A stretch of 64,000 nucleotides of DNA from Escherichia coli O157:H7 (GTDB taxonomy: Bacteria; Pseudomonadota; Gammaproteobacteria; Enterobacterales; Enterobacteriaceae), in assembly GCF_013167455.1 (NCBI RefSeq), contig NZ_CP038328.1; one strand, written 5' to 3'. Below, one piece after another: positions 13,004 to 13,369 of the stretch. Position numbers and translations under genes: made by a program. A model generated the notes under the pieces. That model saw only the letters and a program-made list of their open reading frames with translations. It did no database searches and was not told where the DNA came from. The stretch's first letter is position 1. Each line of letters begins with the position of its first letter.

Positions 13004-13252
13004 TTAGTGAACAAACCACTCGTCAGCAGACTTCCAGGTATCTTTCAGAGTCTCCTGAACAAAAGTTTTAGCTGAATCTTTATCGGCGGTGCGCGTAACA
13101 GAAAGGCCATCGTTGCTGGTGGCTTTTACGATCACCTCTACATCGTCATAACGTTTACTGATGCGTCGGGTTAATTCTTCCTTTAACGCATCCACAGCAC
13201 CGTTTGGCATTTTAGTCATTTTTTCTTTGGCTATGCAGATCTCAATACGCAT
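13004..13252 (-). CDS. dinI: DinI-family SOS-response protein (prophage-borne)
   Basis: 82-aa product [35 protein letters not shown]…[11 protein letters not shown] parallels E. coli DinI (MRIEVTIAK… …ETWESADDWF); GAGGGA RBS; LexA boxes upstream. Confidence 0.8.
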
Positions 13253-13265
13253 AAAAGTCCCTCTA

Positions 13266-13313
13266 TACTGTGTTTGTATACAGTATTATTTTTAACTGTA
13301 CAAATAAACAGTA
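13266..13313 (-). promoter_or_regulatory. Two tandem LexA boxes (SOS operator) in the dinI-like promoter
   Basis: TACTGTGTTTGTATACAGTA (13266-13285) and AACTGTACAAATAAACAGTA (13294-13313); both fit CTGT-N8-ACAG. Confidence 0.6.
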
Positions 13314-13369
13314 TCAAGGTGAGTGAGATGAAAAAAACGGGGGGGTTGTTACCCTTAGTTACAAATTGA

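Follow-up and report, generated by a model that had tools for sequence, protein, structure and literature searches.

A dinI-like gene with two LexA boxes borders ssrA at the edge of the lambdoid prophage Sp17 of Escherichia coli O157:H7

Introduction

In Escherichia coli O157:H7, a prophage that ends at the tmRNA gene ssrA has a dinI-like gene as its outermost gene, in a place where an integrase gene might have been looked for. Two questions arise from this arrangement: is the gene under the control of the SOS response, and why is there no integrase next to ssrA? EHEC strains carry several DinI-like genes with LexA boxes on lambdoid prophages. Given that Stx production depends on RecA-mediated prophage induction, an effect of these paralogues on RecA, if true, would be medically relevant.

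We analyzed a 64,000-nucleotide stretch of contig NZ_CP038328.1 (assembly GCF_013167455.1), hereafter the window, together with related phages and genomes. All positions are those of the window unless stated otherwise. The locus had been brought up by an earlier interpretation based on the letters of the DNA and a list of their open reading frames, which we refer to as the sequence-only reading.

Results

The gene lies at the tail-fibre end of a degraded lambdoid prophage

Many E. coli O157:H7 genomes, that of strain Sakai among them, match the window at 100% identity (coordinates in our Sakai locus, L002, are window coordinates plus 18000). The Sakai annotation 'prophage Sp17; lambda-like phage' spans window positions -10673 to 13519 and abuts ssrA and smpB. 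To the left of dinI are a tfa remnant, the effector genes espM2, nleG8-2, espW and nleG6-3' and a tail-fibre C-terminus, followed further leftward in Sp17 by IS elements, lysis genes and Q. This gene order (tfa, effectors, tail fibre, lysis, Q) corresponds to the right-hand, tail-fibre end of the lambdoid map. Within this degraded lambdoid prophage, inserted in the 3' end of ssrA, the dinI cassette occupies the end on the tail-fibre side.

The decay of Sp17 comprises IS insertions and the loss of head and tail genes; every head and tail gene is missing between the lysis genes and the tail-fibre C-terminus. At approximately 6200-8800 an IS1203/IS629 copy is nested inside a partial ISEc8 (IS66 family), and the ISEc8 truncates a phage endolysin. 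In strain FDAARGOS_293 the same IS1203 abuts a truncated ypjA, which indicates that a further IS-mediated deletion took the rest of Sp17 there. Sp17 has been described as two tandem remnants, Sp17a and Sp17b, and scored as Int-absent, Xis-absent and non-excising (Asadulghani et al., PMC2669165). The supplements of that study do not list the dinI gene and bear on it only through PCR primers, one of which falls within it.

Positions 9333-12502, between the tail-fibre remnant and dinI, are occupied by the type III effector genes nleG6-3' (a pseudogene), espW, nleG8-2 and espM2. This place is taken by other effector genes in relatives: 02E060 has nleL, espN and espK, YYZ-2008 a DUF1076 gene and Stx2_14040 nleC. 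Based on these differences, the slot just inside dinI is an exchangeable effector locus in several of these phages.

An 82-residue member of the DinI family

The dinI-like coding sequence (13004-13252, minus strand, 82 amino acids) was delimited from the open reading frame list, Pfam and PDB comparisons and the existing annotation. It is ECs_3483 of strain Sakai ('DNA-damage-inducible protein DinI') and WP_001217542.1 of RefSeq ('DinI-like family protein'). The product matches the Pfam DinI family PF06183 over the full length of the model (positions 1-63 of 63, E = 1.4e-18, 67.4 bits, threshold passed) and aligns end to end (residues 1-81) with E. coli DinI (PDB 1GHH, E = 2.9e-12). The full-length domain match agrees with the identification of a prophage-borne DinI homologue at these positions in the sequence-only reading. 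The start codon is preceded, at a distance of 6 nt, by a Shine-Dalgarno sequence, GAGGG (13259-13263, minus strand), read from the sequence, and this segment is purine-rich in all aligned copies.

The protein is about 45% identical to chromosomal DinI and keeps the most conserved motif of the family, TW.SAD.WFV. Against the NCBIfam DinI equivalog model NF007893 it scores 69.9 bits, below the cut-off of 111, and this is the reason for the more cautious RefSeq name. The net charge of the whole protein is 0, compared with -5 for chromosomal DinI, and its last 27 residues include six acidic and four basic residues (net -2) versus eight acidic and three basic residues (net -5) in DinI. The C-terminal helix of DinI is a DNA mimic that contacts RecA. 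As this helix is much less acidic here, RecA binding by the 82-residue product may differ from that of DinI. Judging by homology, the protein would be expected to modulate RecA.

The region downstream of dinI holds its terminator and a tfa remnant

An intrinsic terminator follows dinI at 12890-12937 on the minus strand, with a 12-bp stem that has one bulge and is followed by UUUUUCUUUUU (RNA fold, z = -2.76). The tail of the terminator reads U5CU5, and the terminator region is conserved in many phages. The terminator is about 65 nt past the stop codon of dinI, and on this basis the gene is monocistronic. No antirepressor open reading frame was found between the stop codon and the terminator in the open reading frame list or the RNA fold. 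A Gifsy-like operon of dinI, an antirepressor gene and irsA was considered and rejected because the terminator comes after the stop codon with no open reading frame between. The 3'-UTR and the terminator together correspond to 12890-13003; the 3'-UTR is about 105 nt long and has two hairpins and a U tail.

Next to the terminator, at 12736-12888 on the plus strand, is the C-terminal remnant of a tfa gene, which is a pseudogene in RefSeq and has an in-frame TAG at 12802-12804. It represents the last 50 codons, which share 96-97% identity with the tfa genes of 2B8 and HK629 phages, and it marks the tail-fibre end of a lambdoid prophage. The interval 12503-13003 had previously been described as some 500 bp of apparently non-coding sequence. 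This description is right in that the interval is free of an integrase, and needs correction in that it is not plain non-coding DNA: it is phage debris, made up in part of the tfa remnant and the dinI 3'-UTR.

The Rfam family RF02111 ('IS009') has a match at 12617-12845 on the plus strand (model positions 1-199, 105.5 bits, E = 7.5e-25; the gathering score is 117), overlapping the tfa remnant. This match may simply reflect a family built from a homologous prophage intergenic region. On the dinI strand, Rfam gave no sRNA match.

The properties of the protein and of the 3'-UTR bear on a different reading of the locus, in which dinI is SOS-induced and its main output is something other than the modulation of RecA. 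This output could be the binding of another protein partner, such as a repressor, or an Hfq-binding sRNA released from the 3'-UTR like DinR. Consistent with such an output, the product does not reach the equivalog cut-off, the net charge of its C-terminal helix is -2 rather than -5, and the ~105-nt 3'-UTR with its two hairpins and U tail is conserved in phages. There are also precedents, as Klebsiella DinR arises by processing from the dinI mRNA's 3' end, with the possibility in other species left open by its authors (PMC10907235), and the second half of phage 186's Tum protein is DinI-like (PMC3121763). However, the seed of DinR is in a stretch of the 3'-UTR that is specific to Klebsiella (PMC10907235), and the empty Rfam result on the dinI strand also argues against an sRNA of this type. 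The retention of the TW.SAD.WFV motif and the lack of an antirepressor open reading frame co-transcribed with dinI argue against a non-RecA output more generally. We regard this reading as improbable, and RecA modulation by homology is kept as the preferred expectation in what follows.

Two LexA boxes overlap the predicted promoter

A promoter scan placed a -35 element, TTGATA, at 13312-13317 and a -10 element, TAAAAAT, at 13288-13294, both on the minus strand; six of the seven positions of the -10 element are invariant in ten copies. Two LexA boxes overlap this predicted sigma-70 promoter. The distal box, TACTGTTTATTTGTACAGTT in the dinI sense (13294-13313, 22.5 bits), fills the spacer between the -35 and -10 elements. 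The proximal box, TACTGTATACAAACACAGTA in the dinI sense (13266-13285, 22.3 bits), begins 2 nt downstream of the -10 element, covers the predicted transcription start, near 13280, and ends 13 nt before the ATG.

Both boxes contain perfect CTGT-N8-ACAG palindromes, at 13268-13283 and 13296-13311. The window has six matches to this pattern versus 0.8 expected, and none of 100 shuffles reached six. A third match, at 17710, is one of the known recN operators. The recN gene (16020-17681, minus strand) has three known LexA boxes at 17690-17749, which served as an internal positive control and rank first, fourth and fifth. The scan of all 20-mers of the 64 kb used an approximate LexA matrix, rebuilt from literature sites with recN left out, calibrated on the held-out recN boxes and used in place of the exact heterology index of Lewis et al. 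Its highest score, 23.9 bits, belongs to recN box 1; the dinI boxes come second and third with 22.5 and 22.3 bits, above the 20.5-bit median of the training sites, and recN boxes 2 and 3 complete the top five. The two tandem LexA boxes reported by the sequence-only reading directly upstream of dinI are well founded and far exceed chance, with perfect cores and scores of 22.3 and 22.5 bits. LexA-binding prediction, which it had suggested as a check, ranks them second and third in the window, in the midst of the recN boxes.

The cassette is widespread. It was found in 104 phage records, including CP-1639, cdtI, mEp460, YYZ-2008, BP-4795 and many Stx1 and Stx2 phages, and in 3204 out of 5426 complete E. 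coli genomes. O157 genomes among those listed have 4-7 dinI-like copies each. We aligned ten upstream regions of genes that are 70-98% identical, nine from E. coli lambdoid or Stx phages and one from a Klebsiella phage. The -35 and -10 elements and the LexA boxes are kept in this alignment, whereas beyond the -35 element, which is the upstream boundary of the conserved cassette, the sequences belong to three flank classes that are unrelated to one another. Each of the nine E. coli phage copies has its boxes at distances of 13 and 41-42 nt to the ATG, with scores of 14-24 bits. The Klebsiella phage copy has the proximal box and lacks the distal one, and the proximal box is conserved in all ten homologues. 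Of the computational evidence, this footprint, with boxes in register between unrelated flanks, speaks most strongly for a function of both operators.

LexA control and induction by DNA damage have been demonstrated for prophage dinI homologues in the Gifsy phages of Salmonella (PMC3121763, PMC8072944), with induction of 4.6- to 23-fold (PMC8072944). For the chromosomal dinI of Klebsiella, LexA ChIP established LexA control, and the gene is induced by damage (PMC10907235). A search of the literature for ECs3483, Z3916/Z3917 and WP_001217542 found no expression or LexA-binding data for the locus. One preprint (bioRxiv 10.1101/2022.08.08.503262) was set aside as a source on prophage copies as it deals with chromosomal dinI. 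Based on the operators, their conservation and the analogous genes, the placement of the dinI-like gene under SOS (LexA) control is supported.

The prophage arm rebuilds ssrA and supplies a terminator

The ssrA gene (13521-13883, minus strand; ARAGORN, and Rfam RF00023 at 292.8 bits) is rebuilt by the prophage arm. O157 and K-12 are collinear through the ssrA CCA and diverge right after it, and this divergence defines a phage-derived att arm of 203 bp between ssrA and the dinI promoter (13318-13520, minus strand). Within the 3' end of ssrA, the att core CGGGTTCAACTCCCGCCAGCTCCAC (13523-13547, minus strand) was recognized as a block of 25 nt that is identical in the displaced fragment on the distal side of the intact prophage of strain 02E060. 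Phage PhiR12_2 has a 23-nt core of this block in the interval between its dinI and int, and the att core also agrees with the one described in ssrA for PhiNP (PMC6456863). CP-1639 has the phage arm at 98% identity; in 02E060 the arm is conserved in part, and the junction as a whole is 83% identical.

The arm contains a strong predicted intrinsic terminator at 13369-13401 on the minus strand, a conserved fold in which runs of A and U flank a 13-bp stem. Both CP-1639 and 02E060 keep it; the 02E060 stem differs by a T:A to A:T exchange that is compensatory. Transcription of ssrA and dinI runs the same way, and ssrA loses its native terminator on integration. The arm terminator plausibly ends the tmRNA precursor in place of the one that ssrA lost and insulates the dinI promoter from read-through.

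The ssrA 3' end occurs only once in the window, and a second copy of the T-arm segment is also absent in Sakai Sp17. At the far end in Sakai, at the ypjA flank shared with K-12, the displaced ssrA fragment persists only as a degenerate GCCAGCC remnant. In 02E060 the intact prophage is bounded on both sides by the ssrA 3' segment, as a direct repeat of 25 nt. The duplicated ssrA segment that the sequence-only reading had proposed to look for at the other prophage end is present as a 25-nt copy in 02E060, and Sakai Sp17 retains nothing more of it than the degenerate remnant.

The integrase of this phage family is at the end distal to ssrA

We searched window positions 1-14000, including 12400-13560, by tblastn with four integrases (K-12 IntA, the lambdoid Int of 02E060, the PRK09692-type integrase of 02E060 and mEp460 Int; word size 2, E up to 100). 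No integrase or integrase remnant was found; the matches were short and due to chance, the best having E ~0.4-0.5. An integrase revealed within 12503-13003 by a sensitive translated search would have spoken against the sequence-only reading, and this search came out empty, leaving ssrA with no integrase beside it as claimed.

At the corresponding junction (83% identity), strain 02E060 has a relative that appears to be complete. Its order is ssrA, the dinI-like gene, effectors, tail, head, lysis, Q, replication, repressor and a 391-amino-acid integrase ~54 kb from ssrA, and the displaced ssrA fragment is ~1.5 kb beyond this integrase. In 02E060 (positions 35628-37051 of its locus L005) the displaced fragment is followed at once by the PRK09692-type integrase of an older tandem island remnant. 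This tandem array shows that one tmRNA site was used successively by two integrase types with opposite placement of int.

The record of PhiR12_2, whose stated host is K-12, leads to the same orientation. The record ends with the ssrA core, ~270 nt upstream of dinI, and int, 95% identical to that of 02E060, is 1.1 kb into its start, so that in the circular phage attP is between dinI and int. With attP in this position, integration separates the two genes: dinI comes to adjoin the rebuilt ssrA, and int comes to lie at the other end of the prophage. Thus, there is no int beside ssrA because this phage family puts its int at the ssrA-distal end. The opposite orientation offered by the sequence-only reading is borne out by 02E060 and PhiR12_2. 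Its premise that the integrases of ssrA-targeting elements normally adjoin the tmRNA 3' end is valid for K-12 IntA and the second integrase of 02E060, but not for the lambdoid family considered here, and the dinI-ssrA arrangement is less unusual than it implied.

Sp17 has additionally lost the int at its far end. By annotation and protein comparisons at this end, Sp17 has no cognate tyrosine integrase, whereas 02E060 and PhiR12_2 have one. This makes Sp17 a remnant, in agreement with the literature (PMC2669165). Loss of the integrase, the other explanation that had been put forward, also holds: the recombinases at the far end are unrelated to the int of the phage family, in line with the published Int-absent score. 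The far end in Sakai (L002 9074-13222) has three co-oriented genes, encoding tyrosine recombinases of 401 and 437 amino acids and a 543-amino-acid 'DNA-binding protein'. The NF041502 'integrase_1' model gives ECs_3511 a score of 320 bits (cut-off 350), and both ECs_3511 and ECs_3512 have weak matches to the gamma-mobile-trio recombinase GmtY. ECs_3512 and ECs_3511 were considered as the missing phage int and rejected, given that the similarity is restricted to the catalytic motif and that the NCBIfam families differ. The trio looks like the recombinase module of a separate element (Sp17a?), and not like a lambdoid integrase.

We also considered that Sp17 once had its int next to ssrA, like CP4-57, and that a deletion of this proximal int brought dinI to ssrA secondarily. 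The intA of CP4-57 in K-12 and the second integrase of 02E060, which adjoin the ssrA 3' end or its displaced copy, show that such a placement occurs at this site. However, the junction (ssrA CCA, arm, promoter, dinI) is uninterrupted in 514 genomes and in three prophages, whether intact or decayed independently, and the free phage PhiR12_2 already has the ssrA core ~270 nt from dinI. In addition, the int of the intact 02E060 prophage is at the far end and there is no int remnant near ssrA. A secondary arrival of dinI at ssrA is hardly credible given this evidence, and the distal placement of int followed by its loss is retained.

The cassette is intact in a decayed prophage

The open reading frame, Shine-Dalgarno sequence, promoter, operators and terminator of the Sp17 cassette are all intact. 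This is relevant to the reading of the cassette as a silent relic, in which the boxes and the gene have simply persisted through recent decay and neither the regulation nor the protein matters to the cell. The heavy degradation of Sp17, with its head and tail genes lost and no excision (PMC2669165), is in keeping with this, as are the internal stop in the orthologous dinI-like gene of 02E060 and the fact that dinI deletions in Gifsy phages were without phenotype (PMC3121763). On the other hand, the whole cassette is 100% identical in ~300 O157 genomes, it is intact while the adjoining tfa has decayed to a 51-codon fragment with a stop, and it is maintained in functional phages. We consider a silent relic to be quite improbable.

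Discussion

The observations of the sequence-only reading were confirmed and its interpretation is supported. Based on all of the results, it is very probable that the Sp17 feature is a self-contained lambdoid accessory cassette (-35 element, LexA box, -10 element, LexA box, Shine-Dalgarno sequence, dinI-like open reading frame and terminator) that is SOS-controlled, in a prophage whose int was distal and was then lost. For the Sp17 copy itself, we infer LexA binding, induction by damage and RecA modulation from its sequence and its relatives.

In this cassette, regulation would proceed as follows. In an undamaged cell, LexA dimers on both operators would occlude RNA polymerase at the spacer and at the start site. 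Following DNA damage, active RecA would promote the self-cleavage of LexA and the 82-residue DinI-like protein would be made. By homology, the protein may then bind RecA filaments and modulate their co-protease activity. The terminator in the phage arm would take the place of the displaced ssrA terminator and block read-through, so that dinI expression could stay SOS-dependent. As for the position of the gene, an attP between dinI and int leaves dinI at the rebuilt ssrA and carries int to the other end, close to the displaced 3' fragment of ssrA, and Sp17 has since lost the int and the early region.

A more far-reaching idea concerns the set of dinI-like paralogues in O157, with their two-operator promoters and less acidic helix. 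These could jointly act as a dose-dependent brake on, or tuner of, RecA that sets the induction threshold of Stx prophages; alternatively, their conserved 3'-UTRs could release an SOS-induced Hfq sRNA like the DinR of Klebsiella. We put this forward as speculation and think it unlikely.

The dinI gene of Sp17 is an annotated gene in a well-studied prophage, and its regulatory logic, its edge position and the missing int all have published precedent, so that the locus belongs to what is already known. The structure of the cassette is perhaps useful in annotating prophage ends, as homology stops at the -35 element and the arm supplies a replacement terminator for ssrA. Beyond annotation, its importance is small.

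Comparison with known systems

CP4-57 of E. coli K-12 uses the same ssrA site as Sp17, and the outer flank ahead of ypjA, which has a degenerate displaced ssrA fragment (psaA), is common to it and Sakai. Unlike Sp17, it is not a lambdoid phage, has IntA directly downstream of the ssrA 3' end and is without dinI. PhiNP of Citrobacter rodentium, a temperate phage, is similar to Sp17 in that it has a DinI-like gene (ORF1) and uses the same 25-bp ssrA 3' core for integration, but it has been characterised as a member of the Myoviridae and is not lambdoid (PMC6456863).

Chromosomal E. coli DinI shares with the 82-residue product the fold family, the length, the TW.SAD.WFV motif and control by a LexA box. 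The two differ in that identity is only ~45%, the Sp17 product is less acidic and it scores below the equivalog cut-off. Chromosomal DinI is a RecA-filament modulator of the SOS regulon, and the chromosomal E. coli dinI promoter has a single LexA box compared with two at the Sp17 gene. Two LexA boxes are found at the chromosomal dinI of Salmonella (PMC8072944).

Gifsy-1, -2 and -3 also have a prophage DinI homologue with a LexA-repressed promoter in which the operator is close to the ATG (Lemire et al. 2011, PMC3121763; Merida-Floriano et al. 2021, PMC8072944). The Gifsy genes, however, have one LexA box and are internal, ~1.3 kb downstream of replication genes, whereas the Sp17 gene has two boxes and is at the prophage edge. 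Gifsy dinI heads an operon with an antirepressor gene (gfoA/gftA) and irsA, while Sp17 dinI is monocistronic. Non-polar deletions of Gifsy dinI had no detectable effect on induction (PMC3121763).

The closest counterpart is CP-1639 of E. coli O111:H- (AJ304858.2), known as a cryptic Stx1 prophage at ssrA according to the citation of Creuzburg et al. 2005 in PMC8065619. CP-1639 differs from Sp17 in having kept stx1 and most head and tail genes and in its far end, which is a truncated intA-type remnant with no recombinase trio. Like Sp17, it is a lambdoid prophage at ssrA from which its own integrase is absent and in which dinI is the outermost gene, and its DNA is 98% identical across dinI, the LexA boxes, the phage arm and the ssrA junction.
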